NCBI GenBank assembly: GCA_041671325.1
Contig: JBAZBR010000003.1
Coordinates: 132,506-196,505 of the forward strand
DNA: 64,000 nt
From: Patescibacteria group bacterium
Lineage (GTDB): Bacteria > Patescibacteriota > Patescibacteriia > PEXW01
Direction: 5' to 3'
Shown here piece after piece: positions 17,516 to 32,343 of this stretch; position 1 is the first letter of the stretch, and every line of letters starts with the position of its first letter. A program made the position numbers and the translations under genes. The notes under the pieces were generated by a model. That model was not told where the DNA came from, did not search any database, and saw nothing but the letters and a program-made list of their open reading frames with translations.

Positions 17516-17520
17516 ATTCT

Positions 17521-18370: not shown

Positions 18371-21300
18371 ATGAAAAAGGGCGTAGAATTTAATATTCAT
18401 GAAAACTCACAAGAGGAAATTTTTTCCATTGAAGATAAGGCTCCAGAAAGAGAACTTAAAGGTTTTCGGAAATATTTTTTTGAAAGAGTAAGAACACCAG
18501 GCTTGGATCAAAATGTTACGTATACTGAGCAGGATTATGATATTGAGGAAACCAGAAGTGCGGATCAAATTACAATGGAGCGTGGTATCGCTGAAAAAAT
18601 AAGAGCGTCTGTTGATAATTTTTGTACAGAAAATGAGAGTGATTCGAAAGAATCACATGAGCAGACCAAAGAGAGGTGCCAAACAATCTTGGATGATCTC
18701 GTGGTTAATTATTGGAAAAGCCTTATGTCAACAGCTGGTAGGTCAGAATTTGAAGGATTGTTTAATAAAATGTTTGAAGCTGCCCCTAGTGAGGTAGAAA
18801 ATTATTTTAAGACTTTGGCTAGTGACGATAATGAAAGTAGTATTATTAAAACCAATCATTGGGTTGAAATCTTAAAAAATGTTTATTGGTCTGAGAAAGA
18901 AAAAGAGTGGCAGGATAATCACGGAGAGTCCGAACAGACCAATGATAAAGTTTATGAAAAAATTAAATTGTTGTTAAAAAATCTTGACGAAAAAAGCCAA
19001 GACAAATATTTTTTACATAATCGTTTGGCTAATATCTTAAAAGATATCGATACAGGCTTAAGTCCCATAGGAGATCGTCTACCTTTTGAAATCAATTTTG
19101 AGCATTACGCCATCTGGCTGGATAATGGCGGATTAGCAATTACCCCCATGATGGACGACGGTTCCATAGAAGATGATGTAAAGATGTACGAAGAATTTGA
19201 AGCATACTATTTACGTAAGTTATCAGAAATTTCTGACCCTGATGAAAAAAATGAATTTATTAGTCAGATGAACAATGATCTAAAAAAAGCAGAAGAATCA
19301 ATTAGAAGAAATTTTTATTTTGAAAAGATTGATCCTAAAACATTTGCTAATTCAATCGTGAGTAAAGGAAATTCAGAAGACAGCGTTACTAAGTTAGTTA
19401 ATTTTCGTTTTTTATATAATCGAGAAATTATCGGAGAGATTAGCAGGGATTTTCATATCGTTTTCGTTTATGAACCACCCGAGACGGTTTATCGTTTTTT
19501 AAATTTTGCTCAAAGCAAAACCCGCGAGGAATTACGTAGAGTCATGGATTTTTCTAGAATGTATAGTACCGACGGATTAAATTCTTTCTTATCAACCGAG
19601 CTTGATCCCGCTATGGGAGAAAGAATTTTGTCGATCGGAGAAAATCTACAGGATTCGCCGGAACTAGCAAATAAATTGTTTCGCGAGTATTCGATGGTTG
19701 CTCATCGTGCCACACAAACGGCTGGAGAAATCATCAAGTCATTTAGCTTGATATTTCCAGATAAACTAATAGAACAAAGCCAGGTAGTTGAGGCAATACT
19801 TATTAAGGCTAAAGATTTGCTTTTTCAGGTCAGCGAGGAAATCGGGACAAGTGATGACGAAGATAAGGAAGCGATTGTTAATCATGCAATTACTCAGTTA
19901 GAGAAACAGTTAGCAACTCAGAAAAAAGAAATTGGGGAGTTTGCGGAAATCGCTGGGCAGTTAAATGGGAAGTACCAGGAATTATTGAGTTCAGAGTTAG
20001 GCACAAAATTAGTAAATGATCTGGCAGAATTTCAAAAACACCTTCTGGATATGGAAGATACAGAGTTAAAACAACGTTTGCTGCAGGAACAAGAAATTTC
20101 AGGGAAGTTTTCAAGCGCCAGAATTGGTGAGATAATCGATCATTACCAAAGCGAGGTTGATTTTGAGCAAAGCAAGGAATTTCAAATCTTTAGAGGGCAA
20201 CTGTCTGTCGACCAACTTAGTGAATACATTGCTAAACAGAGGCAAAAGATTGAAACAACGTATAAACCCTTAATTCAAAAACTGGAAAAACTTTTGTCAT
20301 TTCAGGTTAATTTTGAAAAAAAGTTGGAACAAATTGTCATCGGCCACGAATCCGGAGTGCTGCCAAAAAATCTGTTAGAACGCTTGCCTGAAGAGGTCCA
20401 AGAAGTAAGACCGGAACGTCTGCCTGACAAAGAGCCGTTGTTTTTTCCTGTTGGCATTACCAAGGATCTGCCGGCAATGCAAGAGGTTTGGGCGGGTAAA
20501 AAAGAAACCGCCAAACCTATTGATATGTATGGCTATCTTTTTTGGCTCAACAATCAAGACCGGCCGGTTGAATTAGTCGTTTGCGACGAGATTCAAACCT
20601 CTAATTATCAAGCGCTGTACCCAGAATTATTAGCAGGCGGATCAGATGATCAGGCTCGCGAACAAGCGCGCCGTATTGGCAGGCAAGAAGTTGAACAATA
20701 TCAAAGAATTATTGAAACATTTGGTTTGTCAAACATAACCATTATTGATTATCACACCTTTAAGGAACGTAATGGTAATGCCATTGAAAAATATAAAGAG
20801 CTTTGTGAGCGGTTGGCGAAGAATGAAACTTGGAGAAACGCTTTTCTCTCAATGGTTCAGGAGTCGGTGTCTGGCGAAGAGCGGGAAAAATTTCTTGCTT
20901 ATGCCATTGAAGAGGTCAGCTGGATTTTGTCCAATGATGGCACCAAAGTTAGTCATGAAAATGAAACCCGCTATGATGCCATTGCCGCAATCATCAGGAA
21001 TATTGAAAATTACGGCCAGAAAAGACAGATAGATATTCTTGATCCAGAAAACGAAGCGCAATTTAATCAAGCTGCCTTAGCTGCCATAGCGGGGCTGCGT
21101 AATTTGATTAACGGGCGAAAGGATCGTGTCACGAAGGATTCTTCAGAGTACCGTTATTATCAAAGAATTGGTGAACATTTAGGAAAGATAAAACTTGGTC
21201 AGGTCGGCCAGCCTGATGATTTTGACGGGAAAACCATCGCGTTCAATTTCGCCATACCGTCGACCGGAGCGCAGAGTTTTGGCTGGCGCAGCCGCGGAGA

Positions 21301-21697
21301 GAAAGGATCCGAAAGCGTTCTAAAATTCAAGGAGCCGTATAGTACATATTTTTACCAGGGTGGGGCTGAACTTTTTCTTAACAGCGACCAGGTCGTAGCC
21401 GTTCCTGAAGGGCAGATAGCCGGAAAAATTTTAGCGCTTGATATCAATCAGCAGCAGGAATACGCGGAAAAAGTCGTGAAGCCAATCCTGGTCCACTATT
21501 TTAAAACTCTGGAAAATGCGCCAGCAGGATTTTTCAAGCTTATTGGCAAATCTCGAACAGAGCTTATAGCCGAATGCCAGTCCTCAGAAACCCTTATGGA
21601 TTTATTACAATTTGTTCAAAAAAATATTATTTCTCCCGTACAGCACAAGGAAACAAAACCAGTTGAATCTATTAGTTCGAAGCAGAAAGCGGCGTAA
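18371..21697 (+). CDS. Large acidic hypothetical protein (1108 aa), no recognisable domain
   Basis: Long intact ORF with E/D/K-rich coiled-coil-like segments. The 3' end overlaps the convergent TrmB paralog 3 by 26 nt. Confidence 0.7.
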   Translation: MKKGVEFNIHENSQEEIFSIEDKAPERELKGFRKYFFERVRTPGLDQNVTYTEQDYDIEETRSADQITMERGIAEKIRASVDNFCTENESDSKESHEQTKERCQTILDDLVVNYWKSLMSTAGRSEFEGLFNKMFEAAPSEVENYFKTLASDDNESSIIKTNHWVEILKNVYWSEKEKEWQDNHGESEQTNDKVYEKIKLLLKNLDEKSQDKYFLHNRLANILKDIDTGLSPIGDRLPFEINFEHYAIWLDNGGLAITPMMDDGSIEDDVKMYEEFEAYYLRKLSEISDPDEKNEFISQMNNDLKKAEESIRRNFYFEKIDPKTFANSIVSKGNSEDSVTKLVNFRFLYNREIIGEISRDFHIVFVYEPPETVYRFLNFAQSKTREELRRVMDFSRMYSTDGLNSFLSTELDPAMGERILSIGENLQDSPELANKLFREYSMVAHRATQTAGEIIKSFSLIFPDKLIEQSQVVEAILIKAKDLLFQVSEEIGTSDDEDKEAIVNHAITQLEKQLATQKKEIGEFAEIAGQLNGKYQELLSSELGTKLVNDLAEFQKHLLDMEDTELKQRLLQEQEISGKFSSARIGEIIDHYQSEVDFEQSKEFQIFRGQLSVDQLSEYIAKQRQKIETTYKPLIQKLEKLLSFQVNFEKKLEQIVIGHESGVLPKNLLERLPEEVQEVRPERLPDKEPLFFPVGITKDLPAMQEVWAGKKETAKPIDMYGYLFWLNNQDRPVELVVCDEIQTSNYQALYPELLAGGSDDQAREQARRIGRQEVEQYQRIIETFGLSNITIIDYHTFKERNGNAIEKYKELCERLAKNETWRNAFLSMVQESVSGEEREKFLAYAIEEVSWILSNDGTKVSHENETRYDAIAAIIRNIENYGQKRQIDILDPENEAQFNQAALAAIAGLRNLINGRKDRVTKDSSEYRYYQRIGEHLGKIKLGQVGQPDDFDGKTIAFNFAIPSTGAQSFGWRSRGEKGSESVLKFKEPYSTYFYQGGAELFLNSDQVVAVPEGQIAGKILALDINQQQEYAEKVVKPILVHYFKTLENAPAGFFKLIGKSRTELIAECQSSETLMDLLQFVQKNIISPVQHKETKPVESISSKQKAA

Positions 21698-22526
21698 TTT
21701 TTTTCATCTGTATTTTTAACCAGTCCGGCTGTTTGTCCTGGCAGTATTTGTTGCCTAACGCCCAACAAAAATTAAAGATTGAGGCCAGCATCGAATAAAT
21801 TTCGTTATTTTCCACGATAACACCAACGTGGTTTTTTTCGGAAAAGGTTACAAAGGACGCTTTGTTTTCGTAGATGTTTATTTCCGTGGCAAATGGGTAA
21901 AGCGTGTGATCGATAAAAATTATTTCCGTTAGTTCATTGGCTTGGTAGCCTTTCATGTAATCAAGTGCCTGGGCATTGTCAGGAATGATGACTTTTTCAA
22001 AAATCTGGAGTTTTTTTCTTTTAGGGGCGTAGTAATTCGTATTCCAGTCTTTAAGGTACTTTGCGTACCCAGCTACGTCAGAAAAAGTTAATAATTTTTT
22101 CTCCTTATTATCAATCAGCGTATCCTCAAGGACTTCTTTAATTCCATCCAAACCTTCAAAAAATCTAACACCCGGCTTGTTCATAGCCAATCGGTAAGCA
22201 GAAGCAATGCTATTAAAACTGGTTTTTAAAATGCGATCCTGCTGTTGGATTAATTTTTCCTGTTCTTCCAGGAGTATTTTAAACCGATCTGGAGGCTCCA
22301 CCATAAAGACTTTTTTGCCGCGTTCTTCGGTTTCCGTCACTAAGCCTTTGTGGGTTAAATCTTTCAGAATGTCATAGGTATTACCGCGCTTATAAGGCGT
22401 TTTAGGCAAGAGCTTGCCCATATTGACCTTGCCTAAAGAGAGCAGGGCTTCGTAAACCACGGCTTCTTTCTCTGAAAGGCCGATTTGGGTAAGAGTTTTA
22501 GCTAAAGAGGAGGCTATTTTTGGCAT
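21672..22526 (-). CDS. TrmB-family transcriptional regulator (paralog 3, 284 aa)
   Basis: IGLSEKEAVVYEALLSLGKVNMGKLLPKTPYKRGNTYDILKDLTHKGLV. Confidence 0.7.
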   Translation of the reverse strand: MPKIASSLAKTLTQIGLSEKEAVVYEALLSLGKVNMGKLLPKTPYKRGNTYDILKDLTHKGLVTETEERGKKVFMVEPPDRFKILLEEQEKLIQQQDRILKTSFNSIASAYRLAMNKPGVRFFEGLDGIKEVLEDTLIDNKEKKLLTFSDVAGYAKYLKDWNTNYYAPKRKKLQIFEKVIIPDNAQALDYMKGYQANELTEIIFIDHTLYPFATEINIYENKASFVTFSEKNHVGVIVENNEIYSMLASIFNFCWALGNKYCQDKQPDWLKIQMKKITPLSASN

Positions 22527-22747
22527 GTTTTTTAGAGTAAATTAAGCTTATTTGATGGGTTGAACCTGTGGATAACTTTATTTCAAACTAAAGATTAATT
22601 GACAAGAAAGCGTTATTACGTAATCAAGTTTAGCAAAAATAAAATATATTGTCAAATATATATGACATAATTATACATATAAATATTAATTATTTATGCT
22701 ATTAATATTAATAAATGACAAAATGATGTATTTTTTGGCACTATGAC

Positions 22748-22776
22748 TTGACAGTTTTTCAATATGGGTATATACT
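22748..22776 (+). promoter_or_regulatory. Consensus sigma70-type promoter TTGACA - 17 nt - TATACT
   Basis: Perfect -35 hexamer, 17-nt spacer, and a -10 of TATACT. Followed by ~500 nt with no ORF. Confidence 0.6.
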
Positions 22777-22789
22777 CCCTTGTTACGCT

Positions 22790-23290
22790 AGAAATGGTTA
22801 CCAAAGGAACTCCTGAACTTTGAAAAATGAATAGCGATAAATTCCACTCACCTTTAAAAAGCACTCGGGGTGAGCATGGAGAGAGCGCCTTCCCCCGCGT
22901 TTGCGGGGATGGCGAAAAGATAGCGAAAGCTATTTAGAGCTTGCTTATTAATTTATTATTCAAATGAATTTAAACCAATAAAAGGGACTCTCTCAAGTTT
23001 TTGAGCAGAGTCCCTTTTAATTTGGTAAATCTCCAGGGGTATAGAGAGGATCCGCCTTCGTCCCGCTTTACGCGGGACTTCGGCGGACAAAGAGAAGGAT
23101 TGAATAACCATAATAATCATTTACAGTCCTTATCTCTTCTCTAAACTCTTTTGAGAGAGAAAGAGTGAATAAATGTTCTTAAAAAACAAAATAAAAATTT
23201 GTTCTTAGTAATTGCTCTTTATTTGTTCTTTATATCAGCTGTTTGAAATTTTATTTCTGGAATTTTTGGAGAGAGAGATTGAAATAAGAT
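22790..23290 (+). ncRNA. Candidate non-coding RNA or long structured leader downstream of the consensus promoter; multiple perfect GC hairpins in AT-rich background
   Basis: Hairpins CCCCGC-gttt-GCGGGG, GGGACTCT...AGAGTCCC, GTCCCGC-tttac-GCGGGAC. No convincing ORF (the 103-aa and 76-aa ORFs are low-complexity). No match to the conserved motifs I checked by eye for tmRNA, RNase P or SRP RNA. Confidence 0.3.
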
Positions 23291-23450
23291 TTTGAACTTG
23301 ATTTGGCGAGTCGTAGTCGGGAATCCATAAGCTACGTTGAATGACGTGGCGCGGTTAACAAGATCACTAAACTCGCCCCAAGTGCGCGCCCTCATTACAT
23401 TTGTAGTGGGGGTTGCAGTTGGGAAACCAACAAAAAAAAGAAAAACAGCT

Positions 23451-23529
23451 CGAACCACAACGGTTCGGGTAGAAGATAAAACAAACCAAGTCCCATTTTG
23501 CTCAAAGCGAAGATGGGCGTGGAGGAACA
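23451..23529 (+). promoter_or_regulatory. Island module (a): palindrome CGAACC-acaac-GGTTCG + GGGTAGAAGATAAAAC + A-rich + AAGTCCCAT-hairpin-ATGGGCG + TGGAGGA RBS
   Basis: Conserved with modules at 24267, 26936 and 28547, with compensatory changes in both hairpins. Confidence 0.6.
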
Positions 23530-24159
23530 ATGAAAAATTTGAAATGGGTTCCTATTGTAATATGTAGGAGCCTAGAAATAATCTGTTGCATACCCTTATG
23601 GGTAGTGCAGCAGATAATAACCCGCCCCTTATTGGGGTGGAGAGTTCGTCGTACCGTCATTGACGGTAAGATTTCGTGTACGATGTCCAGAGGTTGTTGG
23701 GTTGAAAATCCAAACGGCCAGGACGTATATTCATTTGGTCCCCACGGAAACCCCGGGGACCAAATTCAACTCGTGTATCTTGGTGGATTGATTGGTTGGA
23801 GAATTTCTCCAACCAACCTCTCCACCTCCCCGAGGATGGAGCTGGAGGGAAGGAAGGGGTACCGTCGCGGCTACGAGGCCGCGATTACGGAATTACTGGG
23901 CAGCCTGACCGGCAGCTATTACCAGGAGGTAATAGGGCCGGGGGGATTTATAGAAGAGGGTCAGATGACCCTCAAGAATTTCTTGCAGGCCGGCTGGGCG
24001 TCGGCCTGCAATTACGACTATTCTTCCGAAAGCGCCTCTTTTAGAGGCGAGACGGAAGAATGCGTGGTAGAAGCCAACCACTATTCTGGTGGGTGGGATG
24101 ACGGGGTGATAAATATAGTCATCACCCATAAGGAGGCCATAAAGAAAGCCGCCGGCTAG
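23530..24159 (+). CDS. hypothetical protein (209 aa), GC-rich island ORF1
   Basis: ATG 5 nt after the GGAGGA of the conserved module. No known motif. Confidence 0.6.
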   Translation: MKNLKWVPIVICRSLEIICCIPLWVVQQIITRPLLGWRVRRTVIDGKISCTMSRGCWVENPNGQDVYSFGPHGNPGDQIQLVYLGGLIGWRISPTNLSTSPRMELEGRKGYRRGYEAAITELLGSLTGSYYQEVIGPGGFIEEGQMTLKNFLQAGWASACNYDYSSESASFRGETEECVVEANHYSGGWDDGVINIVITHKEAIKKAAG

Positions 24160-24178
24160 CACTGCCGTTCGGCTTCAT

Positions 24179-24226
24179 GAGGAAACAGGCGAGCTCGCAC
24201 GCTTGTCTGTTTCCTCTCTCAAATTT
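24179..24226 (+). terminator. Terminator GAGGAAACAG-loop-CTGTTTCCTC + TCTCAAATTT
   Basis: Perfect 10-bp stem. Confidence 0.65.
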
Positions 24227-24266
24227 AGCTTGTGGAAATTTTTACAGGCTGAAACATGGGAAAATA

Positions 24267-24357
24267 GCCCGGACCACAACAGTTCGGGCAAAAGATAAAA
24301 AACACAAAAAAACAAAGTCCCACATTGCATGATGTAATAGTGGGCGTGGAGGATGAG
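24267..24357 (+). promoter_or_regulatory. Island module (b): GCCCG-GACCACAACAGTT-CGGGC + AAAAGATAAAAAAC... AAAGTCCCAC-hairpin-GTGGGCG + TGGAGGA
   Basis: Homologous to module (a). Stem changes CCCAT/ATGGG -> CCCAC/GTGGG are compensatory. Confidence 0.6.
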
Positions 24358-24705
24358 ATGAAGCTAAATACACTTTTGGAAAGTCTCTCGTTACTTGGGG
24401 AATTATTTCCCCAAGGCCAGGACATCGTTGTTCTGTTGGGGGAGGCGTCCACATCCCTGCAACGGGATGTGGATATAGTTGAAATCTCGGTAGTCTCTCG
24501 GGAAGACTTTGGTAAATTCCAAAGTCTTCCCGCAAAGGAGTTTGGCACTGAGCCGTACACAGGCTCGGACGACTGTCAAACATGGACCCACTGCTTCAAA
24601 CGCGGTGGGTTCGTCCTAGTAGTTACAGGGTTCCATGCCGGCTTCGAAACCGGCGCGGACGAACAGAAGTGGGAGGGGGGTAGAATATATTACCTACCCC
24701 TTTGA
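24358..24705 (+). CDS. hypothetical protein (115 aa), island ORF2
   Basis: Start placed at the ATG 5 nt after GGAGGA, by analogy with the other modules. Confidence 0.55.
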   Translation: MKLNTLLESLSLLGELFPQGQDIVVLLGEASTSLQRDVDIVEISVVSREDFGKFQSLPAKEFGTEPYTGSDDCQTWTHCFKRGGFVLVVTGFHAGFETGADEQKWEGGRIYYLPL

Positions 24706-24722
24706 AAGTTCGGAGCACTTAG

Positions 24723-24762
24723 ACAGGATGCGTTATGCACATACGCATCCTGTCACTTTTTC
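24723..24762 (+). terminator. Terminator ACAGGATGCGT-tatgcacat-ACGCATCCTGT + CACTTTTTC
   Basis: Perfect 11-bp stem plus a T tract. Confidence 0.7.
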
Positions 24763-24819
24763 AGAATTCTTCAATTGTTGGAGATTTCTGAAGAAGAAAA
24801 CTGGTAGAAAGGAGGATTA

Positions 24820-25749
24820 ATGAACTATCGGTTTGGAATTCTTGATCCGCGGCAGATTCCGGCGGCGGAAGAAAACAATGCTAAGGTGCTCGGTCCGAGT
24901 ACCTTAGGGGTTGAAGTCACCGTGCCGGCACTTGCCACACGGTGCGGGCTGGGGAATATCGATCCCCAGCACTCTGACGGCCAGGTTGACTTGGCCGCCA
25001 TCGAAGTTGCTCTGACGGCAGAATTGCAGCCCGACGGAGCGACTTTGGTTACCAACCGCGCCGACTTGGATGCGGTTGGTACTATGGCGGTATTTTCGCT
25101 CCGCGCCAAAGGCGTCGAATTGACGCCGGAGACGCTTGAGCGGTTCCGCCTCATTGCCGAGGCGGACAAGTTCGCCCGCGGGGGTTGGTCTGGTCCGCGG
25201 CTGCTGCCGACCGTCGAACAGCTGTTCGACGATTCGATGGCGTCGGCCGATACCGACAGCCGGCTGGCGCCGATGTCAGCCGCGATCGGGGATTTTAAGA
25301 TCCCGATAGCGGATCGGGTCGCCTGGATGGAGCACTGGCTCCTGACAGGCGAGGAGCCGGACGGGTACCGCGATCGTTGGCTCGCGGAACGCCGGCAGAT
25401 CGCCGAGGCCATCGCCAACGGCTCGATGAAAGTCGAGCTGGCGGCTGACGGCCAAATTGCCACGGTGGTTAGCACCCACCGTGCAGCTACGACGCTGGGT
25501 TACTGCTTAGCGCCGGTGGTTATCGCCCTCAATCCGGAGTTCCGGGTGCAGGGCAGTGAGGCACACCCGAAATTTACGGTGTGCCAATTCCAGGTCGGCC
25601 ATGCCGATCTGGTCGCGGCGAAGAAAGATCTCGCCGCCAAAGAAACTGGGTGGGGCGGTAGTCCCACCATCATTGGATCTCCTCAAGGAGTCGGCAGTTC
25701 GCTGACCCTGGAGGAGGTTATTGAGGTGGTTGCACGCCATCTCAAATAG
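24820..25749 (+). CDS. hypothetical protein (309 aa), island ORF3
   Basis: RBS AAAGGAGGA. GC-rich, Ala/Leu-rich. No recognisable domain. Confidence 0.6.
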   Translation: MNYRFGILDPRQIPAAEENNAKVLGPSTLGVEVTVPALATRCGLGNIDPQHSDGQVDLAAIEVALTAELQPDGATLVTNRADLDAVGTMAVFSLRAKGVELTPETLERFRLIAEADKFARGGWSGPRLLPTVEQLFDDSMASADTDSRLAPMSAAIGDFKIPIADRVAWMEHWLLTGEEPDGYRDRWLAERRQIAEAIANGSMKVELAADGQIATVVSTHRAATTLGYCLAPVVIALNPEFRVQGSEAHPKFTVCQFQVGHADLVAAKKDLAAKETGWGGSPTIIGSPQGVGSSLTLEEVIEVVARHLK

Positions 25750-25758
25750 TATTTTTTT

Positions 25759-25796
25759 GGGGAGCCGTGTGTGTTTGCACAAACACGCGGCCCCCC
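25759..25796 (+). terminator. Terminator GGGGAGCCGTGTGTGTTTG-ca-CAAACACGCGGCCCCCC
   Basis: Long GC stem with a palindromic centre, followed by TCTTTATCC. Confidence 0.65.
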
Positions 25797-25893
25797 TCTT
25801 TATCCGAATTCATCATTACTACGAATTTGTACGAATTCGTAAAAACAAATGGTGGGTTCAGAAAAAGTAGCCATAAATATTTCTCTTCCCACA

Positions 25894-25982
25894 CCGGGTC
25901 AGATCCTTGCGTTGCATCATTACCTAATGGCGAAACGCAAGATTGCTCTTTCCAATCTGACCCGCTGTAGAGAGAGAAAAAA
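25894..25982 (+). ncRNA. Structured RNA element copy 1 (leader of ORF4): CCGGGTCAG [inner hairpin CTTGCGTT/AACGCAAG] CTGACCCG + CTGTAGAGAGAGAAAAAA
   Basis: Outer 8-9-bp stem and tail are conserved with 29538-29620. The inner stem differs in sequence but stays paired (covariation). Confidence 0.5.
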
Positions 25983-26007
25983 TAAGACAAGAAGAAAGGA
26001 AGTAAAA

Positions 26008-26793
26008 ATGGGCATTGGGGAATTTATGTTTGAGGGGCTAGAGTGGTTGGGCCATGACGAAGATGGCCCGGACCCTGTGGCGAGTATCGAGTGCCACGAT
26101 CTTGCAAAGCCGGGAGGGTTTTGTGGGATCAAGGTGGAGAGAACCCATGATGGAAGCGTATACAATGTATTTTCATACGGGTTCAGGGATCATTATGATC
26201 CCGAGAAAGCAGCTCAAATAAATGAACTGATTGGCGGGGATCGGATTATTTTGTTCCGTCCCCAATGGACTCTTAACAACGCCTTCACGGAAACGTGCAA
26301 GGAATTGTTAAGGAAAGTCAGGGTCGGCTGGAAATGGCATCCAGTCGAAATCATCCTATCTCTCCGGGAGCTTGCGCTAGCTCCCATGTCTAGTTCCGAG
26401 GGAAACCAGCTTTCCTGGAAAAGATGTTTCCCGGTTTCCACCTATTTTAAAAAGAGGTGGGATAAAGTTGACGAGTTATGGGCAGTGTTGGAAGGAAACA
26501 CCCAACTCGTCGAGATATGGATCAAGGCGATCCAAGAAAGCGTCATCTTGATTGGGGGATTGGAAAAGTATAGCTGGGTGGACGCCAACACCCGTCTTGA
26601 ATGGGTCGGGTTTCGGGAAGGGAAGAATGGAGCAATCCTGGGTCGAACTGACGATGGGAAAATTTCCTTCCCGGAAAGGAGAGGAATTATTCCCAAGGAT
26701 GGCGACAGGTGGCTGGTTGCAATCGTTGGCACCAATCTGAAAGGAAGCGTGAACTTCCTGCGGTTGGTGTCTAATAAGGAAATAAGTTGGTAA
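26008..26793 (+). CDS. hypothetical protein (261 aa), island ORF4
   Basis: RBS AAAGGAAG, 6 nt before the ATG. Confidence 0.55.
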   Translation: MGIGEFMFEGLEWLGHDEDGPDPVASIECHDLAKPGGFCGIKVERTHDGSVYNVFSYGFRDHYDPEKAAQINELIGGDRIILFRPQWTLNNAFTETCKELLRKVRVGWKWHPVEIILSLRELALAPMSSSEGNQLSWKRCFPVSTYFKKRWDKVDELWAVLEGNTQLVEIWIKAIQESVILIGGLEKYSWVDANTRLEWVGFREGKNGAILGRTDDGKISFPERRGIIPKDGDRWLVAIVGTNLKGSVNFLRLVSNKEISW

Positions 26794-26801
26794 TTTTTTC
26801 C

Positions 26802-26929
26802 GGGCCACGTGAGGAGGGCCCATTGTCCGGCGCAAGCTGGATAAAAAGTCTTGGTTTGTCTGCACGGGCATACCTTGATCTCCTCTCTCTTTTCTACCTC
26901 ATAGCAATTTGTGTGAGGTGGAAGTGGAG
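26802..26929 (+). repeat. Direct repeat DR1 (~127 bp), beginning GGGCCACGTGAGGAGGGCCC right after the ORF4 stop
   Basis: About 88% identical to 27689-27815, which lies after the ORF5 stop. Confidence 0.8.
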
Positions 26930-26935
26930 AAAGAA

Positions 26936-27025
26936 AACCGCCCGCGCCATTACGGTTCGGGTAAAAGATACAAAAACAAACAAAGTCCCATCCCGCATCA
27001 GGCGAGGGTGGGTGAGGAGGAAGAA
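26936..27025 (+). promoter_or_regulatory. Island module (c): AACCG-CCCGCGCCATTA-CGGTT + CGGGTAAAAGATACAAAAAC ... AAAGTCCCATCC-hairpin-GGGTGGG + TGAGGAGGA
   Basis: Same architecture as modules (a) and (b). Confidence 0.55.
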
Positions 27026-27685
27026 ATGAGAACCGAAAAAGGTTGGCCGTCGCAGGCCGACAGCGGCTCAGAAAAGGGCTGCTTAGTTTTTAAGGAAGGG
27101 GGCGAAACGACGACAACTTACTTCGATAGCTTCGAAGAGGCGGTCGCTGTTTTCCTGGGTCTCTACAACGAGTACCCAGGAATTATTTGGCGGGGGGATT
27201 GTTGGAAACCTGATCTTAACCACCGCTGCAGCGTGCCCCACAAGCCGTGGGGCAGCAACGGCGGTAGGTGGTACAATCCCGAGTATGGCCGAGAAGTAAT
27301 CCTTTATTACAAGGACGGCCGCCGTGAGGGATGGCAGAGTCCGTGTTGCGACAAGACCGGCCGTTTCTATCGCGGCGCGTTTGTACGTCAGACCATGCCG
27401 CATATCGTACCAGGATATGGGTACATGCAGCGACGCAAACCACGCCGTGACGACCTTCTCCCTGCTGGGACGGCACGGAGTGATTGGGCATACAATAACC
27501 CGGATCCCGTGAACATTGGCGGGGTGATCGTGGATCAGCGGGAGATCAACCGCATCCGGAAATTGACCGAAGCGCTCCCAACCCACATCACCACGTGGGA
27601 CGCTTCGGGGAGCTACCTTTATTTGGAGGAAATTGTTTGGGGTGATGAACCCCAGCTAATGTTTGAGAAGGCGGTTAGACAGTAA
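27026..27685 (+). CDS. hypothetical protein (219 aa), island ORF5
   Basis: Start at the ATG after the module's GGAGGA. W/Y/R/G-rich with several Cys. Confidence 0.55.
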   Translation: MRTEKGWPSQADSGSEKGCLVFKEGGETTTTYFDSFEEAVAVFLGLYNEYPGIIWRGDCWKPDLNHRCSVPHKPWGSNGGRWYNPEYGREVILYYKDGRREGWQSPCCDKTGRFYRGAFVRQTMPHIVPGYGYMQRRKPRRDDLLPAGTARSDWAYNNPDPVNIGGVIVDQREINRIRKLTEALPTHITTWDASGSYLYLEEIVWGDEPQLMFEKAVRQ

Positions 27686-27688
27686 TTC

Positions 27689-27815
27689 GGGCCATGTGAG
27701 GAGGGCCCATTGTCCAGCGCACGCTGGATGAAAAGTCTTGGATTGTTTGCACAAACATACCTAGACCTCCTCTCTCTTTTCTACCTCATAGCATTTGTGT
27801 GAGGTGGAAGTGGAG
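27689..27815 (+). repeat. Direct repeat DR2 (~127 bp), second copy
   Basis: See DR1. Substitutions are mixed transitions and transversions. Confidence 0.8.
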
Positions 27816-27883
27816 ATTGTTCCATACACCGGACGACGCGGTAAACCGGTCGAGCCATTAATCAGCCTAAAGGAGGTGAAAAA

Positions 27884-28309
27884 ATGGCAAAGTACGTTAT
27901 CGCCCAAGAGGGCGATCGCGTGGGAGAGGTGAAATCCACTCTACGGGCTGAAATTAATCTCGGCCTGAAGAAGGGGTATGCCGGTTTCCTCCAGGAGAAA
28001 GAGGAAGTAATCTCTTTCTTGAAGGAGGAGTATCGGCAGGCCTTGGCCGCCGGTCTGAACTTTATCCCGGTCGGGATACAGCAGACCGACTTAGTGTACG
28101 CATACCCAGTCGAGGGTGGCGTGCACGCCGAGGCTGAACCGTCGTTGACGCTTTTCGCCGACAGGAATCCGTTGTACTCAACGGAGTCGGAAGAAGAGTG
28201 GCAGGCGATGGTGGAAGATCTCGCCTCCAAGCTGGCCGAAAAGTTCGACCAGTTCCGGGTGTACGTTACGTACATTCGCGTGGAGGTGAAGATTTTCCAG
28301 AAGGCCTAA
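27884..28309 (+). CDS. hypothetical protein (141 aa), island ORF6
   Basis: RBS AAAGGAGGTG. Confidence 0.6.
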   Translation: MAKYVIAQEGDRVGEVKSTLRAEINLGLKKGYAGFLQEKEEVISFLKEEYRQALAAGLNFIPVGIQQTDLVYAYPVEGGVHAEAEPSLTLFADRNPLYSTESEEEWQAMVEDLASKLAEKFDQFRVYVTYIRVEVKIFQKA

Positions 28310-28472
28310 GGCCTTCTATGTCTCCCACAAAACCCCGGCACCGAGGGTTCATATCGGGCGGCTGTAGCATAAGACAGCCTGAATTGGAGGCTCGAAAAAA
28401 GCAATAGTTCGGATGGCCGAATATTGATAATTCGAGTTGAGCCAATATCTTACAAAGTTTTTGGGAAACGGT

Positions 28473-28508
28473 TGCGCGCACTATTGCATCCGTTTCCCTC
28501 TCTTTTTC
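28473..28508 (+). terminator. Terminator GGGAAACGG-loop-CCGTTTCCC + TCTCTTTTTC
   Basis: Perfect 9-bp stem. Same TTTCC(T)C-TCTC ending as the 24179 terminator. Confidence 0.65.
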
Positions 28509-28546
28509 AGCTCTTAAATCGAGGGTTGAAAGTGGAGAAAAAATAG

Positions 28547-28600
28547 TCCAAACCACTACGGTTTGGGCAAAAATAAAAAAAGTTATTCCAGGAGGAAAAG
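28547..28600 (+). promoter_or_regulatory. Island module (e): CCAAACC-actac-GGTTTGG + GCAAAAATAAAAAAAG + GGAGGA
   Basis: The palindrome covaries with module (a): GAACC/GGTTC here becomes AAACC/GGTTT. Confidence 0.55.
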
Positions 28601-29437
28601 ATGGATAGATCACAAAAGTTTTGGACGGGTAACTCAGTCAACCCGGTGGCGGAGCATTATCGTCGGGTGATTGAAGACAATCGGCAGAAAGAGGCCGAGT
28701 TGGTGGCTCATGAAGCAGTTCTTGCGGCGCATGGCCCCGAGTTTGCCGCTAAACAAGGACTTCGGTTCCTTGGAACTCGACGGCGTTATCCGGAGGGGAC
28801 GAGGATCGAGAAAGATCCCAGGCTCTCATGGATGACTCCGCCAAAGAGTGTCATCGAACTGGGGTTTGAGGTCGCTCCAGCCGGCACCGCTGGCTGGAGG
28901 GTGCGTGGAAAGCTTGCCCCATGGGTTCAACTGTCGGGCAAGCAATCTTCCGGCTGGATCATCTGGCTGGAAGAAAAGGATATCGCTCGTTTGAGTGAGA
29001 TTTGGAGGAAACCCGATATCCCTCCGGTTGAGGAGCGCTCAGTTCCGCAACCAAACGGAACTCTAACAAATTTTGGAGGGGTATTTCGGGAATGTGGCTA
29101 TTCGAATAATAAAGAATATTTTGTCATAGCCACAGACGGAATCCTCCGGAACCCGGATATAACCACCAAGGATGAGAAGCTGTGGAAGGTGGTAGCGGGT
29201 ACTGACCTGGCGCTCTATCACGCCAAGTCATTTCAGCATGCCGAACATGTTTTTGAAGTTCGGCATTTGCCGGTCGGCGGTTTGACCGAGGCCCAAAAGG
29301 AGACGGTAAACCGTCTGCAAGAGGTGATCGCCGAAAAATGGGAAGGGCGGGTAACTGGAAACCACAATCTAAGCCCTTCCATGGGCGATGGCTGGGGACT
29401 AACGGTCCCGACCTATCGCCGTATTGGAAACCTATAA
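28601..29437 (+). CDS. hypothetical protein (278 aa), island ORF7
   Basis: RBS CAGGAGGAAAAG. No known motif. Confidence 0.6.
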   Translation: MDRSQKFWTGNSVNPVAEHYRRVIEDNRQKEAELVAHEAVLAAHGPEFAAKQGLRFLGTRRRYPEGTRIEKDPRLSWMTPPKSVIELGFEVAPAGTAGWRVRGKLAPWVQLSGKQSSGWIIWLEEKDIARLSEIWRKPDIPPVEERSVPQPNGTLTNFGGVFRECGYSNNKEYFVIATDGILRNPDITTKDEKLWKVVAGTDLALYHAKSFQHAEHVFEVRHLPVGGLTEAQKETVNRLQEVIAEKWEGRVTGNHNLSPSMGDGWGLTVPTYRRIGNL

Positions 29438-29460
29438 ATTGTTCAATTAAGAGGAGCTCT

Positions 29461-29491
29461 GCATGCACAATGCATCTCCTCTCTCTTATCC
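29461..29491 (+). terminator. Hairpin GAGGAG-ctctgcatgcacaatgcat-CTCCTC + TCTCTTATCC
   Basis: Same terminator + TCTCTT architecture as the other island intergenic regions. Confidence 0.5.
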
Positions 29492-29537
29492 AGTTCTTGA
29501 TTCCATCGAGGATTGAAAAAGAGTTTATCTCCCGAAG

Positions 29538-29620
29538 CCGGGTCAGGTGTTACGTGTTTTTGTTTATTCAGAAATACGCAACACGTTTTCTCTCCACTGA
29601 CCCGACTTGGAGAGAGAAAT
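29538..29620 (+). ncRNA. Structured RNA element copy 2 (orphan, at the island's right edge): CCGGGTCAG [inner GTGTTACGT/ACGCAACAC] CTGACCCG + ACTTGGAGAGAGAAAT
   Basis: See copy 1. Followed by the terminator at 29637; it is not followed by an island gene. Confidence 0.45.
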
Positions 29621-29636
29621 TAATTACTATTAAGTC

Positions 29637-29662
29637 TAAAAACGACCGTTTGAAATCAGATG
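29637..29662 (+). terminator. Rho-independent terminator AAAAACGACC-gtttgaaatcagat-GGTCGTTTTTT
   Basis: Perfect stem plus a T tract; marks the right edge of the GC-rich island. Confidence 0.65.
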
Positions 29663-29747
29663 GTCGTTTTTTATTTGACTTATTTTTGGAATGTAATTAG
29701 GATAATACAAAACAAAAGAAAATCGTGAAACAGAGGAGGTTTGAAAA

Positions 29748-30014
29748 ATGTTTGTTGCCATCTTTATCTTTTTAGGCGCCTTGGGATTTTTAGCTTCATT
29801 TGTTACGACAAATCGAAAAAAGAGAATTGGATTTCTTGTCGCGGGAATGATTTTCTGGGTTTTAAGCGTAGTGTTTGGTTGGCTGCAATATCAGTACGAA
29901 AAGAAACAACCCCAGCGTCATTTTATCGGGGAATATCAGCAAAATGTCGAGCAACATTCCTTTGCTTGGCTAAACTTCGATGGCGTTGAAACCGAACCGA
30001 TGAACAACGCTTGA
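29748..30014 (+). CDS. small membrane protein (88 aa, 2 TM helices)
   Basis: RBS AGAGGAGG. TM segments FVAIFIFLGALGFLASFV and GFLVAGMIFWVLSVVFGWL. Confidence 0.5.
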   Translation: MFVAIFIFLGALGFLASFVTTNRKKRIGFLVAGMIFWVLSVVFGWLQYQYEKKQPQRHFIGEYQQNVEQHSFAWLNFDGVETEPMNNA

Positions 30015-30266
30015 TTCGCCAAATCCTTTCAAAGATATTTTTAAAAAGAGCGGGCTTAACCACCTACTCTTTTTTATTTGACTAAATAAAGCTTAAGGCG
30101 TAGATTAATTTAAAACAAAATGAAATAGAGCAAAGCTTGAAAATAACAGCTATTTTAATTGTTTCACATTTAGGGCTGAAGAGTTTGAAGTCTAAATTGC
30201 TTAGCAAATTCCGAGAGGTAAAAAACCAAGCCGAGAGGCTATACCAGAGATGGAAAGGAGATCTAA

Positions 30267-30677
30267 ATGGAAATAACACGTATTGATTGCGAACGCTTCT
30301 TTAGTGGTTCACAAGAGATCGACCGTAAAAGATTGATTATTGCCTTAGTTCTTTCAACGGTTGAACATATGGCGTGGACTATCAAGAGAAAAAGCCATGG
30401 ATGGAAGAGTGGCCAAAGGATTCTTAGCATTGCGTTTGGCGAGTTAGAATTCGTTTGGGAAGCTGATGATAATTCTGTGTGTGGTCGATTTTACCACAAA
30501 AGACAATATACTAGGTGGTGGGGGTATTCAGGTGAGGTAATTCCGGCTAGTTTAGTCTCGACTATTTACGAGCACCTATCAGAAATAGTTGAAAAAACGG
30601 CAGAGGCATTCCCACGGCTTGGCATCATTGAGCACTTTCAGTTTTTTATGAACCAAGCACCAGCCAAGTCAGTTTAA
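30267..30677 (+). CDS. hypothetical protein (136 aa)
   Basis: RBS AAAGGAGA, 6 nt before the ATG. Confidence 0.5.
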   Translation: MEITRIDCERFFSGSQEIDRKRLIIALVLSTVEHMAWTIKRKSHGWKSGQRILSIAFGELEFVWEADDNSVCGRFYHKRQYTRWWGYSGEVIPASLVSTIYEHLSEIVEKTAEAFPRLGIIEHFQFFMNQAPAKSV

Positions 30678-30748
30678 AATTATATAGTATTTTTTTGAAA
30701 AATCCCGTTCTTACTATGAGAATGGGATTTTGTTATATCTTTTTGTGA

Positions 30749-30803
30749 ATCTCACCCGGTTCCGCCTTGGCGGAGCCGCCCCCTCCTATACAGGAGAGGG
30801 GGT
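30749..30803. repeat. REP-like element E1: CTCACCC + GC-rich hairpin TCCGCC-tt-GGCGGA + CCCCTCC-tataca-GGAGAGGGGG
   Basis: Family members lie at 31825, 32222, 47041 and 47111, in both orientations. Confidence 0.6.
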
Positions 30804-30804
30804 A

Positions 30805-31797
30805 TTACAATGCAAGTTTTATTAATTTAGTAATTAATTCTTTGTAAGGAATACCAGAAATTTCCCAGAGTTTTGGGTAAAGAGAAATTGGCGTAAAACC
30901 AGGCAAGGTGTTAATTTCATTCAAATAGACTTTTAAATTTCTATCTAATAAAAAATCAACCCTGGCTAAGCCGCGACAGCCAGCTATTTTATATGCCGTT
31001 AGAGCAATAATTTGGATCTCCTTAATTTTTGCTAAAGGCAATTTCGCGGGTAATTCAAAAGATGCATGGTTATCCAAATACTTATCGTTATAATTATAAA
31101 AATCGTTATGCGGAATGACCCGACCTGGCAAGGTAACTTTATAATTTTTTTCAGAATTTCCCAAGACTGAAATTTCGATTTCTTTACAATTCTTGATGGT
31201 TTCTTCGATGACAATTTTATTATCAAACTTTTTGGCCTTATTGATAGCTTTTAATAGCAATCTGTTTGATGCAACTTTGGAAATTCCGACTGAAGAGCCA
31301 GTTCTAGCTGGTTTAACAAAAAGCGGATATTTTAATCTATTAATCTGAGATAGGTTTTTTGATGTTATGTCATTTAAGATAACGAATTTTGGTTTGGGTA
31401 ATCCAGAAGTTGACATTAACTGATTAAATATTCCTTTATCAAGACAAATTGTGGAACTTGGTACATCAGCGCCAACATAAGTGACGCCTAGGGTTTCAAA
31501 AAAGCCCTGGATTGTTCCATCCTCCCCGCCTTTGCCGTGTAAAACCGGAAAAGCCACATCAATCATGGCGGGAATTTTATTCAAATCAGCATTTTTCAAT
31601 TTTGAAAATTGTTTTTTTAAAACTGAATCTAAGGCATTATTGGCCTGCCAGATAATTCCCTTTTTATCAATCCAAAATTCCTGGACTTGGAATTTGGTCC
31701 GATCAATATTCTTAATTATCCCTTGAGCTGACCATAAAGAAACCTGGTGTTCGGGAGATATACTGCCAAAGAAAATGCCAACTTTTATTTTTTTCAT
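30805..31797 (-). CDS. ddl: D-alanine--D-alanine ligase
   Basis: N-terminal VGIFFGSISPEHQVSLWS; an ATP-grasp region with the Ddl-typical EETIKNCKEIEISVLGNSEKNYKVTLPG and C-terminal ...GLARVDFLLD. Confidence 0.85.
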   Translation of the reverse strand: MKKIKVGIFFGSISPEHQVSLWSAQGIIKNIDRTKFQVQEFWIDKKGIIWQANNALDSVLKKQFSKLKNADLNKIPAMIDVAFPVLHGKGGEDGTIQGFFETLGVTYVGADVPSSTICLDKGIFNQLMSTSGLPKPKFVILNDITSKNLSQINRLKYPLFVKPARTGSSVGISKVASNRLLLKAINKAKKFDNKIVIEETIKNCKEIEISVLGNSEKNYKVTLPGRVIPHNDFYNYNDKYLDNHASFELPAKLPLAKIKEIQIIALTAYKIAGCRGLARVDFLLDRNLKVYLNEINTLPGFTPISLYPKLWEISGIPYKELITKLIKLAL

Positions 31798-31824
31798 AGC
31801 AGAAAAGATACTTATAAATTGTTA

Positions 31825-31885
31825 ACCCCCTCTCCCTCTGGGAGAGGGTACGCGAAGCGGGGGTGAGGGTTACTCGGAAATTAAT
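31825..31885. repeat. REP-like element E2 (inverted orientation): CCCTCTCC-ctctgg-GAGAGGG + GC segment + GGGTGAGGGTTACTCGGAAATTAAT
   Basis: Reverse-complement architecture of E1. The tail matches E4. Confidence 0.6.
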
Positions 31886-32214: not shown

Positions 32215-32221
32215 GCTTGAT

Positions 32222-32338
32222 CAACCTCACCCGGCCTTCCTGCCCGTCACCCGCCCGACAGCTTCGCTTCCGAAGCGGGCGGGTCGCTACGCTCAGGCGT
32301 TGCAGACGGGTGGCCACCCTCTCCTACGAGGAGAGGGG
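32222..32338. repeat. REP-like element E3 (long form): AACCTCACCC + CCCGCCCG-acagcttcgcttccgaag-CGGGCGGG + ... CCCTCTCC-tacgag-GAGAGGGG
   Basis: Same termini as E1 and E5, with an expanded internal perfect hairpin. Confidence 0.6.
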
Positions 32339-32343
32339 ATAAA

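Follow-up and report, generated by a model that had tools for sequence, protein, structure and literature searches.

Chromosomal integrons are recognized by a single promoter, an array of promoterless open reading frames (ORFs), palindromic repeats, and variable cassettes. Hairpins such as repetitive extragenic palindromic (REP) elements and the RNase III sites of phage T7 serve as intercistronic stabilizers or processing sites. Patescibacteria have tiny genomes and an obligate epibiotic lifestyle. For hammerhead ribozymes clustered around variable genes, the proposed role is to divide long transcripts into mRNAs of single-gene length (PMC3088659), and boxA-dependent antitermination of long untranslated transcripts has been documented for CRISPR arrays (PMC7665894). 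Here, we analyze a stretch of 64,000 nucleotides (nt), hereafter the window, that lies within a 210-kb contig of a Patescibacteria metagenome-assembled genome. A reading of the letters without database searches (the sequence-only reading) had drawn attention to an island at 23290-29700 in which plus-strand ORFs are accompanied by a repeated noncoding module, and had interpreted it as a system of separately regulated cassettes. We find that the same noncoding modules bracket nonhomologous ORFs in sister genomes, which bears out the idea of a cassette system, and we argue that the island is probably the body of a single transcription unit of ~6.9 kb whose swappable cassettes are bracketed by RNA structures.

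The seven plus-strand ORFs (ORF1 to ORF7) encode 209, 115, 309, 261, 219, 141, and 278 amino acids (aa) and start at 23530, 24358, 24820, 26008, 27026, 27884, and 28601, respectively; their number and sizes held when the ORFs were checked. At the junctions between them, the noncoding elements follow the order hairpin A (HpA), a CCUCUCUC tract, hairpin B (HpB), an A-tract, a hairpin that we call H1, an A-rich spacer, a second hairpin (H2), the Shine-Dalgarno (SD) sequence GGAGGA, and the ATG. All intergenic regions fold better than shuffled sequences (z = -3.6 to -7). The module of H1, a conserved box, and H2 had been described upstream of ORF1, ORF2, ORF5, and ORF7. Full copies are present before the first three of these ORFs, and both hairpins fold in each of them (z = -2.5 to -4.4), but the copy before ORF7 is partial: it consists of H1 and the box, lacks AAAGTCCCA, and does not form the second hairpin. 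ORF3, ORF4, and ORF6 lie in the same array without this module. Within the 64 kb, the module core GTTCGGGYAAAAGATA and tail TCCTCTCTC occur exclusively in the island, the tail four times where 0.16 occurrences would be expected. The distance from the SD sequence to the ATG is 3 to 4 nt, not 5 nt as had been stated.

The strongest indication that these noncoding elements act as a fixed frame for changing genes comes from close relatives. A scan of metagenome contigs with the module pattern, which is absent from IMG/VR, identified two sister contigs, L079 and L080. Both contain the TrmB-family regulator gene that neighbors the island, followed by the same promoter, leader, and module, and L080 additionally contains the large protein encoded upstream; the ORFs after the module are unrelated, and the L080 array has no DHH gene. 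In the alignment of L079 with L080, a stretch of 1535 nt at 96.1% identity stops precisely at the ATG; similarity returns at the 3' module (GCCGYCGGCTAGCAC...), and the sequence between these two points cannot be aligned. Likewise, the window and L080 are 78.6% identical from 19598 to 23486, after which the modules align but the ORFs never do: the second window module (M2) is 91.8% identical to the first module of L080, the ORF1 3' element together with M2 is 72% identical, and the array tail (29476-29541) is 86% identical. In a third relative, L003, a long hairpin (LH) and a 130-nt 3' element are 84 to 88% identical to their window counterparts around a nonhomologous ORF. Because identity stops at the ATG and resumes at the 3' module while the ORFs in between are unrelated, the modules behave as constant flanks of exchangeable slots, and from these alignments we take them to define exchangeable expression slots. 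Homologous recombination in the flanks would be the simplest mechanism for such a swap.

We considered whether the module copies could instead be a local artefact, that is, functionless remnants of a recent tandem duplication. The copies are 62 to 77% identical to one another and the two copies of the 130-nt element ~90% identical, as such an origin would predict. However, the ORFs beside the copies are unrelated by paralogy, the differences from one copy to the next leave the pairing intact, and the modules, whose absence from other genomes would have fitted an artefact, are found in L079 and L080 at identities that exceed those of the flanking genes (up to 91.8% versus 78.6%). We therefore regard a duplication artefact as highly improbable.

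The pattern of substitution suggests what kind of element the modules are. Over seven copies from three genomes, 97.8% of the cells in H1 and the base of H2 are paired, compared with 16 to 52% when the partners are slid out of register. Two pairs in the H1/H2 alignment are changed on both sides, and the observed values were reached in 20 of 500 shuffles; the compensatory changes that had been noted in the 5' hairpin are thus real. H1 contains 11 G.U cells and one G-C to A-U exchange; its 3' arm is invariant, and its 5' arm varies only in ways that are compatible with pairing as RNA. The tops of H2 differ in sequence but keep their fold in five of six copies, the second L080 module (Mb) folding differently. 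Since the covariation counts in this analysis draw on 3 to 7 sequences that are related or paralogous, the covariation is no stronger than suggestive, and it suggests that the modules are plus-strand RNA structures and not DNA operators or promoters. A search by eye for a covarying partner in a pairing of the AAAGTCCCA box with the leader hairpin, or in a pseudoknot between the H1 loop and downstream sequence, found none.

An alternative, which follows the sequence-only reading, is that each module is an autonomous control region composed of an upstream terminator, a palindrome bound by a repressor (TrmB or XRE), a -10-like AAAAGATA box, and a structured 5' untranslated region (UTR). Stable hairpins with partial U-tracts do precede the modules, and one scored as terminator-like; the box and the 3' arm of H1 are also conserved in sequence, as a protein or polymerase site would be. 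On the other hand, most copies of the palindrome are imperfect when read as DNA, and G.U pairs maintain it. Because the 11 G.U cells keep their pairing only as plus-strand RNA and are mismatched in DNA, the palindrome is not well explained as an operator, and another palindrome, which lies at the main promoter, is the one conserved near TrmB in distant loci. Three ORFs of the array (ORF3, ORF4, and ORF6) manage without such a module, and two contigs that share the ORF6 and ORF7 families have self-cleaving ribozymes at the equivalent positions. A pattern scan of 22400-30200 found 14 promoter-like sites, none of them in a module, and a single strong sigma-70 match; no module contains a sigma-70-like pair of -35 and -10 hexamers spaced 16 to 18 nt apart. 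The scan used sigma-70 consensus hexamers only, and the promoters of Patescibacteria are uncharacterized. Among the HpA hairpins, only 24185-24206 passes a scan for intrinsic terminators; the others are followed by CUCUC and by U-runs that form the 5' arm of HpB. With this balance of evidence, autonomous control regions appear unlikely, and the separate regulation of each unit is replaced by one promoter with an 11/12 consensus match and one canonical terminator.

On the minus strand, H1 at 23448-23470 and at 28546-28568, together with its T-run, scores as an intrinsic terminator. The module hairpins could block antisense transcription into the array.

By pattern scan, the island looks like one transcription unit with a single promoter and a single canonical terminator. 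The promoter (TTGACA-17-TATACT, 22748-22776, plus strand) is the best sigma-70 match in 22400-30200 (11 of 12 positions) and is conserved, together with the downstream sequence GTTACGCT, in L003, L066, L079, and L080. The one canonical intrinsic terminator of the same interval lies at 29638-29671, within the array end at 29450-29671 (plus strand), which contains HpA (29450-29482), HpB (29491-29515), and a copy of LH without a following ORF (29522-29621). Divergent from the island is the gene of the TrmB-family regulator (21672-22526, minus strand; PF01978, E = 8e-11, above the cut-off), whose product has the N-terminal TrmB winged-helix DNA-binding domain and is 83% identical to its counterpart in L080. 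In the promoter region of this gene lies a candidate TrmB operator, O1 (TTGTCAAATATATATGACAT, 22649-22668), of the type TTGTCA-N8-TGACAA. Across 883 kb of the loci compared, this pattern has 23 matches with at most one mismatch, of which 14 lie within 130 nt of a TrmB start, and it, rather than the module palindrome, is likely to be the TrmB operator. A second, weaker palindrome (TTGGCA-N8-TGACAG, 22735-22754, two mismatches to the consensus) overlaps the -35 box of the island promoter. The equivalent site has TTGACA(A) as its right half in L003, L011, L017, L048, and L055, and in L003 this right half is itself the -35 hexamer of the leader promoter. The 22735 palindrome may thus serve as an operator at the island promoter.

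Between the promoter and ORF1 lies a long structured leader RNA that is untranslated (22783-23435, plus strand, with its 5' end placed from the promoter). Together with the first module (M1), the leader forms a segment of ~750 nt (22783-23535) with a predicted folding energy of -258 kcal/mol (z = -11.8). Across four genomes (the window and three relatives), compensatory changes are found in 20 of 53 predicted pairs of its 5' domain and in 9 of 41 predicted pairs of its 3' domain, a two-arm structured RNA of 134 nt with invariant junctions (23300-23433, plus strand). In comparison with L003, the leader has 21 double compensatory pairs, versus 8 to 11 with shifted partners. A nearly invariant long hairpin (AAAAGGGACUCU...AGAGUCCCUUUU, 22969-23030, plus strand), followed by UAAUUU and near-identical in the window, L003, L079, and L080, looks like an internal terminator or attenuator from its sequence. 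Further downstream, two motifs that resemble boxA stand in tandem (23213-23232, plus strand): TGCTCTTTA starts at 23213 and TGTTCTTTA at 23224. The label follows the general boxA consensus, from which that of Patescibacteria may differ. In the 2.2 kb upstream of ORF3 homologues, TG[CT]TCTTT[AG] occurs 19 times on the plus strand and once on the minus strand (p = 2e-5; 12 of 64 loci), and, by analogy, antitermination of the NusB/NusE type may take place at these motifs.

A covariance model of the 3' domain of the leader (R1) matches the window, L079, L080, and L003 exclusively. Rfam searches of the whole window at gathering level returned only three distant tRNAs, and those of 22400-30200 at E-values up to 5 returned only chance-level matches; the leader and the modules therefore belong to no known RNA family. 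BLASTN and nhmmer searches with pieces of the leader and modules against the 62 loci with an ORF3 homologue reached L003, the nearest relative, and no other locus, which indicates that the noncoding parts diverge too fast for sequence search.

Following the array in the direction of transcription, all of its elements lie on the plus strand. M1 (23436-23529) comprises an A-tract, H1 (23448-23470), an A-rich spacer, H2 (23486-23522), and GGAGGA (23521-23526), and is followed by ORF1 (23530-24159; 209 aa with a hydrophobic N terminus). The 3' module of ORF1 (24146-24261, z = -7.0) begins with the stop-codon motif GCCGCCGGCTAG and continues with HpA (24179-24216), a CUCUC junction, and HpB (24217-24261); it is conserved in L080, as is its start in L079. 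M2 (24262-24357; H1 24267-24289, H2 24317-24345, SD 24348-24353) precedes ORF2 (24358-24705, 115 aa). The ORF2-ORF3 intergenic region (24706-24819, z = -5.8) contains HpA (24722-24754) and HpB (24756-24796) and then an SD sequence. After ORF3 (24820-25749) comes the 5' module of ORF4, the 100-nt LH (25880-25979, z = -5.1), which is closed by UUUCUCU / AGAGAGAAA; it is conserved in two copies in L003, and its paralogue at 29522-29621 closes the array. ORF4 (26008-26793, 261 aa) is followed by the first copy of the 3' element (26794-26930), made up of three hairpins, the CCUCUCUC tract, and HpB, and 88% identical to positions 12080-12179 of L003. M3 (26930-27025; H1 26940-26962, H2 26987-27012, SD 27016-27021) leads into ORF5 (27026-27685, 219 aa), after which the second copy of the 3' element (27686-27816) stands before ORF6 (27884-28309, 141 aa). 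These two copies, the direct repeat that had been noticed after ORF4 and ORF5, measure ~130 nt and are ~90% identical, and the A-U / G.U and C-G / U-A changes between them preserve pairs. The region before ORF7 (28463-28600) contains HpA (28463-28498), HpB (28499-28538), and the partial fourth module, M4, with H1 at 28546-28568 and an SD sequence at 28590-28596; the two-domain ORF7 (28601-29437, 278 aa) is the last cassette.

Public annotation gives ORF4 as 314 aa from 25849. The extension (25849-26007) would cross LH, and because this hairpin is conserved, and is noncoding in L003, the longer form is probably over-extended and the true start is probably the ATG at 26008.

The possible function of the modules is illuminated by two further contigs, L081 and L082. 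They have ORF7 homologues at 66% and 48% identity, one of them also has an ORF6 homologue, and both consist of arrays of ORFs without recognizable domains. Their intergenic modules contain three type III hammerhead ribozymes (RF00008): two in L082, at 4431-4485 (50.2 bits, above the gathering score of 48.5) and 4007-4057 (E = 0.0016), and one in L081, at 625-679 (39.9 bits, E = 6e-6). In L082, GTTCTTTGAA directly follows each ribozyme, whereas no such motif follows the ribozyme of L081. The arrangement agrees with the role published for clustered hammerheads around variable genes (PMC3088659). In the window itself, a search at gathering level found no hammerhead, and neither did one of 22400-30200 at E-values up to 5; matches to the core pattern within the island lie in an HpB arm or in coding sequence and are without the helices. 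By analogy with L081 and L082, the window modules may be intercistronic elements for RNA processing or stability. In L082, the leader at 3167-3267 (plus strand) has a sub-threshold match to the SAM-I riboswitch (29.5 bits against a gathering score of 44.4, E = 0.0024), followed by a terminator-like hairpin and the boxA-like TGCTCTTTG, which hints that cassette arrays can be metabolite-gated. A 253-aa ORF of L081 ('NVDHH') was considered as a second DHH cassette and dropped after an hhalign comparison with the ORF3 family was negative.

We next turn to the cassette proteins. Searches of Pfam, PHROGs, and NCBIfam yielded no significant match to any of the seven products; PADLOC gave no match for six of them and one weak match, that of ORF6 to the Mvol_0529 family (E = 7.6e-5). 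The description of all seven as ORFans nevertheless proved wrong. ORF3, the sole widely conserved cassette, has at least 784 homologues at ~55% identity, ORF7 has 138 representative homologues, and ORF6 has a homologue in L081 (28% identity, E = 9e-13). Nor does the statement that no component matches a known system apply to ORF3, in which a two-domain DHH + DHHA1 fold is present; by fold, ORF3 is a divergent stand-alone DHH/DHHA1 phosphoesterase and a predicted enzyme. Searches with its sequence found no Pfam family at E-values up to 1, including DHH (PF01368) and DHHA1 (PF02272), and no match in the Protein Data Bank (PDB). Within the family, D48, H51, D82, D84, D116, R221, and G277-W-G-G are invariant and H220 is nearly so, but the canonical DHH triad is not recognizable; the catalytic motifs of DHH/DHHA1 phosphoesterases are DXD, D, DHH, D, and GGGH. 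Exact copies of ORF3 are confined to the source Patescibacteria organism in a protein database search.

For ORF7, AlphaFold2 gave a confident model (predicted local distance difference test score, 91) with no fold match in the PDB. Its C-terminal domain (approximately residues 150-270) also ends longer proteins; of ten homologues scanned, two have Helicase_C or HA2_N domains and are DEAD/DEAH-box helicases. In L043 and L066, the ORF3 homologue is followed downstream by a distant relative of ORF7 (E = 1e-6), and the L066 protein in turn connects to relatives in L058 and L016. ORF1, ORF2, and ORF5 have no relative in any of the related loci that were fetched, and a word-indexed search of 5.8 billion proteins with ORF4 retrieved only ORF4 itself. 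We rejected the possibility that the ORFs without homologues are noncoding parts of one giant RNA, considering that all seven ORFs show the coding-like pattern GC1>GC2<GC3 and have strong SD-ATG contexts; for ORF1, ORF2, ORF4, and ORF5, the predicted coding status rests on composition and SD context.

In relatives, cargo ORFs at ~9461-9775 of L003, 7356-7654 of L042, and 1523-2278 of L079 encode small Cys-rich proteins, two of them with DnaJ-like CxxCxGxGC zinc-ribbon motifs (CEICCGNGCSNC, CPNCEGFGCEVC) and one with CDEC ... CHHC, and the slots of L075 encode single-pass hydrophobic peptides of 34 to 59 aa.

To place the island in a wider context, we compared 62 genomes with an ORF3 homologue, from Paceibacteria, Nomurabacteria, Kaiserbacteria, Woesebacteria, Saccharibacteria, and others. 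The recurrent families in these loci are ORF3, the TrmB homologue, and the large protein; the remaining neighbors are locus specific. A TrmB homologue is found near the ORF3 homologue in ~28 of the 62 loci, mostly divergent and 1.2 to 2.2 kb upstream, and a large protein family is convergent with TrmB in 13. The position of the locus beside TrmB, the large upstream protein, and glutamate dehydrogenase is kept in relatives down to 63% ORF3 identity. In three relatives whose gene calls were read, the 1- to 2-kb gap between TrmB and the first ORF contains no called genes; in loci read by eye, it has a near-consensus promoter at its start and repeated AGGAGAGAG motifs. Rfam searches of 10 further ORF3 loci returned tRNAs only. 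More distant ORF3 loci each have an unrelated 5'-UTR module of their own, which recurs in front of consecutive ORFs and places a hairpin directly next to the SD sequence (L066, 7080-7150 and 7940-8001; L042, 7285-7355 and 7730-7804; L075, 130-185, 480-528, and 730-783). As far as these sequences indicate, the principle of a repeated slot module appears to be general and the module sequence clade specific.

Two other observations were made in these loci. In the syntenic relative L066, a gene for a four-helix-bundle protein resembling 23S-rRNA-IVP and bAvd lies between TrmB and the leader promoter (5519-5905, minus strand); there is no reverse transcriptase among the called genes of this locus. 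ORF3 homologues are also present on contigs labeled Actinomycetota or Proteobacteria with GC contents of 58 to 69%: L028 (Nesterenkonia flava JCM 14814), L031, L040, L041, L050, and L057. One of these contigs comes from an isolate assembly, and they could be real members from outside Patescibacteria, contamination, or the product of mis-binning.

The composition and surroundings of the island bear on its origin. The jump in GC content that the sequence-only reading had seen is real, but its estimate by eye of 55-60% was too high: the island has a GC content of 51.4% by count, compared with 42.1% in the remainder of the window and 39 to 40% in the sequence on either side of it. No other 6.4-kb stretch of the window is as GC-rich, and the 500-nt peak of 65% lies inside ORF3. 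The GC content at third codon positions (GC3) ranges from 0.54 to 0.72 in the seven ORFs and from 0.31 to 0.51 in neighboring genes; the adjacent TrmB gene has a host-like composition, unlike the GC- and GC3-rich slot contents. Upstream of the island are genes for a thioredoxin reductase-like protein, glutamate dehydrogenase, a CDP-alcohol phosphatidyltransferase, a 1108-aa protein without domains, and the TrmB-family regulator (minus strand), and downstream, by Pfam scan, are genes for D-Ala-D-Ala ligase, DUF559, and YjbQ. The neighbors are ordinary chromosomal genes.

This setting is relevant to the possibility that the island was acquired horizontally as a degraded prophage, satellite, or defense island, in which case the modules would be phage-style processing sites and the shift in GC content and codon usage would derive from the donor. 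The GC3 difference is what such an import would leave, most of the cargo has no homologue in the searches run, six relatives of ORF3 (29 to 44% identity) sit on contigs predicted to be viral, and ORF6 has its weak PADLOC match. Clustered hammerheads like those of L081 and L082 are, moreover, typical of prophages (PMC3088659). Yet a scan of genes on both sides found no integrase or other mobility gene, the island is not bounded by direct repeats, and there is no tRNA gene within 15 kb of it; the tRNA genes of the window (Arg-CCT, 3212-3286; Ala-CGC, 7177-7250; Ala-GGC, 7824-7899) are all more than 15 kb away and are therefore not its integration site. PHROGs gave no matches, ORF3, ORF6, and ORF7 had none in 50,697 phage records (tblastn), and ORF3 had none in 72,556 plasmid records; with PADLOC included, these collections gave essentially nothing in favor of the phage, plasmid, or defense origin that had been proposed. 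The place beside a TrmB gene of host-like GC content is kept down to 63% ORF3 identity. Finally, in most lineages the GC content of the ORF3 gene exceeds that of the genome it belongs to (for example, 0.62 versus 0.39 and 0.65 versus 0.43), which favors a standing property of the locus over one recent import. We therefore consider horizontal acquisition of the island improbable, if somewhat less so than autonomous control by each module.

Several features of the neighborhood deserve mention in their own right. The 1108-aa protein (18371-21697, plus strand) has no Pfam domain, and its gene is convergent with that of TrmB and overlaps the TrmB 3' end. Its residues 723-838 match tRNA-dependent cyclodipeptide synthase at a level below the threshold (TIGR04539, E = 3e-4). 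Compared with its L080 counterpart, the C-terminal 733 aa are 80% identical and the N-terminal ~375 aa are unrelated. It is weakly similar to the large proteins convergent with TrmB, and weakly similar large proteins are encoded at its position in five ORF3 loci. A giant ORF of 2908 aa (33599-42325, plus strand) with a moderately raised GC content of 0.47 begins 4 kb downstream of the island.

The observations described above can be combined into a model of a single RNA-punctuated transcription unit, which we favor over the other readings. The unit would occupy a fixed chromosomal site in a Patescibacteria clade, beside a divergent TrmB-family regulator. Transcription would start at the one strong sigma-70 promoter, whose overlapping palindrome is presumably a TrmB operator, and would pass through the ~750-nt leader with its terminator-like hairpin, boxA-like motifs, and covarying 134-nt domain, then through the seven cassettes to the one terminator. 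The modules would punctuate the polycistronic RNA: HpA and HpB could attenuate transcription and protect 3' ends, the A-rich spacers could give host RNases a site of nuclease entry, and H1 and H2 could shield the 5' ends so created and keep the ribosome-binding site accessible, the H2 clamp abutting GGAGGA. The modules would also be the constant flanks between which coding sequence is exchanged, most simply by homologous recombination, and therefore a given slot would hold unrelated genes in close strains. Of the parts of this model, the lone promoter and terminator of the pattern scan, the RNA-type conservation of the hairpins, the boundaries of the swap, and the ORF3 fold are shown by the analysis; the binding of TrmB, antitermination by Nus factors, cleavage of the RNA at the modules, and the mechanism of recombination are steps that we infer.

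A number of points weigh against this model. The swap is documented in three close relatives (L079, L080, and L003), and the module of H1, box, and H2 turned up in no more than two further metagenome contigs; L003 does not have it, H1 being an indel there. The analogy with hammerheads draws on other contigs that share only two cassette families, and the window modules themselves match no ribozyme or known RNA family in Rfam. H1 with its preceding A-tract also reads as an antisense terminator on the minus strand. An unconventional promoter in the conserved GGGYAAAAGATA box is possible, and the transcription start, read-through of HpA, and cleavage are elements that we infer. The GC-richness of the slot contents has no explanation under the slot model.

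A broader reading would account for this last feature, and we offer it tentatively, as an idea with appreciable but less than even support. The island could be an undescribed, Patescibacteria-specific chromosomal cassette array, a TrmB-gated and rRNA-style platform with a strong promoter, a boxA leader, and a large novel structured RNA, on which bare ORFs, most of them found in one strain only, are continually replaced between constant RNA modules without an integrase; the DHH phosphoesterase would be the one cargo retained throughout the phylum. The excess of GC and GC3 in the slots would be a signature of exchange, for example because gene conversion with a GC bias acts at a recombination hotspot or because the cassettes come from a common GC-rich pool, and the cargo would consist of fast-turnover proteins for interaction with hosts or competitors. 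A search of full-text literature with queries on Patescibacteria, structured RNA, TrmB, hammerhead, and the candidate phyla radiation (CPR) found no description of the locus or arrangement, which combines known mechanisms in a form that did not come up in these queries. In spite of a tiny genome, ~7 kb are devoted here to RNA architecture and strain-specific genes. If the slot model is true, gene content would be diversified at a prewired, fixed expression site without an integron integrase, and there would be a defined place for fast-evolving proteins possibly used on hosts or competitors. The analysis also adds three objects: the ~750-nt structured leader, an RNA that is supported by covariation and belongs to no Rfam family; an enzyme family of DHH fold that extends across the phylum, is unannotated, and is linked to TrmB and a candidate operator; and a natural set of portable 5'/3' UTR modules that could serve as expression parts in the few genetically tractable Patescibacteria.

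Comparison with the systems introduced at the outset places the island among them without identifying it with any one. Its single upstream promoter, promoterless and mostly uncharacterized ORFs, structured and imperfect palindromic repeats, and strain-variable content are shared with chromosomal integron arrays (Pc, attC), and the modules or parts of them (H1, or the stop-codon hairpin GCCGNCGGC) could in principle be recombination sites for a recombinase encoded elsewhere. This seems quite unlikely to us, more so than horizontal acquisition. No IntI or attI was found near the island, and a Pfam search found no tyrosine recombinase from 8 kb upstream to 3 kb downstream (genes within 15253-22526 and 29748-32883). 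H1 is a hairpin of 8 to 9 bp; in the alignment of the seven copies its arms read CCACAAC / GGTTCGG, and neither conforms to the attC core, RYYYAAC ... GTTRRRY. The island repeats are plus-strand RNA hairpins that include the ribosome-binding site, and the swapped segment runs from ATG to stop with the ribosome-binding site and hairpins outside, whereas an integron cassette carries its own attC.

The stand-alone DHH/DHHA1 phosphoesterases (NrnA, Pde2, PggH, TM1595, and archaeal PAP phosphatase) differ from ORF3, which has no Pfam match at an E-value of 1 and an unrecognizable triad. Like the clustered hammerheads of prophages (Perreault et al. 2011, PMC3088659), the window modules are repeated structured RNAs that flank individual variable genes, but they contain no hammerhead core or Rfam ribozyme, and the locus is chromosomal, syntenic, and linked to a regulator. 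The boxA/Nus antitermination of rRNA operons and CRISPR arrays (PMC7665894, PMC3177189) likewise involves a strong promoter, a long untranslated structured RNA, and sense-strand TGYTCTTTR motifs, a motif that in L082 recurs after each ribozyme; here, however, the transcript goes on to encode proteins. Finally, REP elements and T7 RNase III hairpins resemble the island hairpins in being stable stem-loops that, inside a single operon, follow stop codons and precede ribosome-binding sites. The island differs in having four ordered hairpins per junction, conserved linkers, stronger conservation than that of its genes, and boundaries at which one gene is replaced by another.

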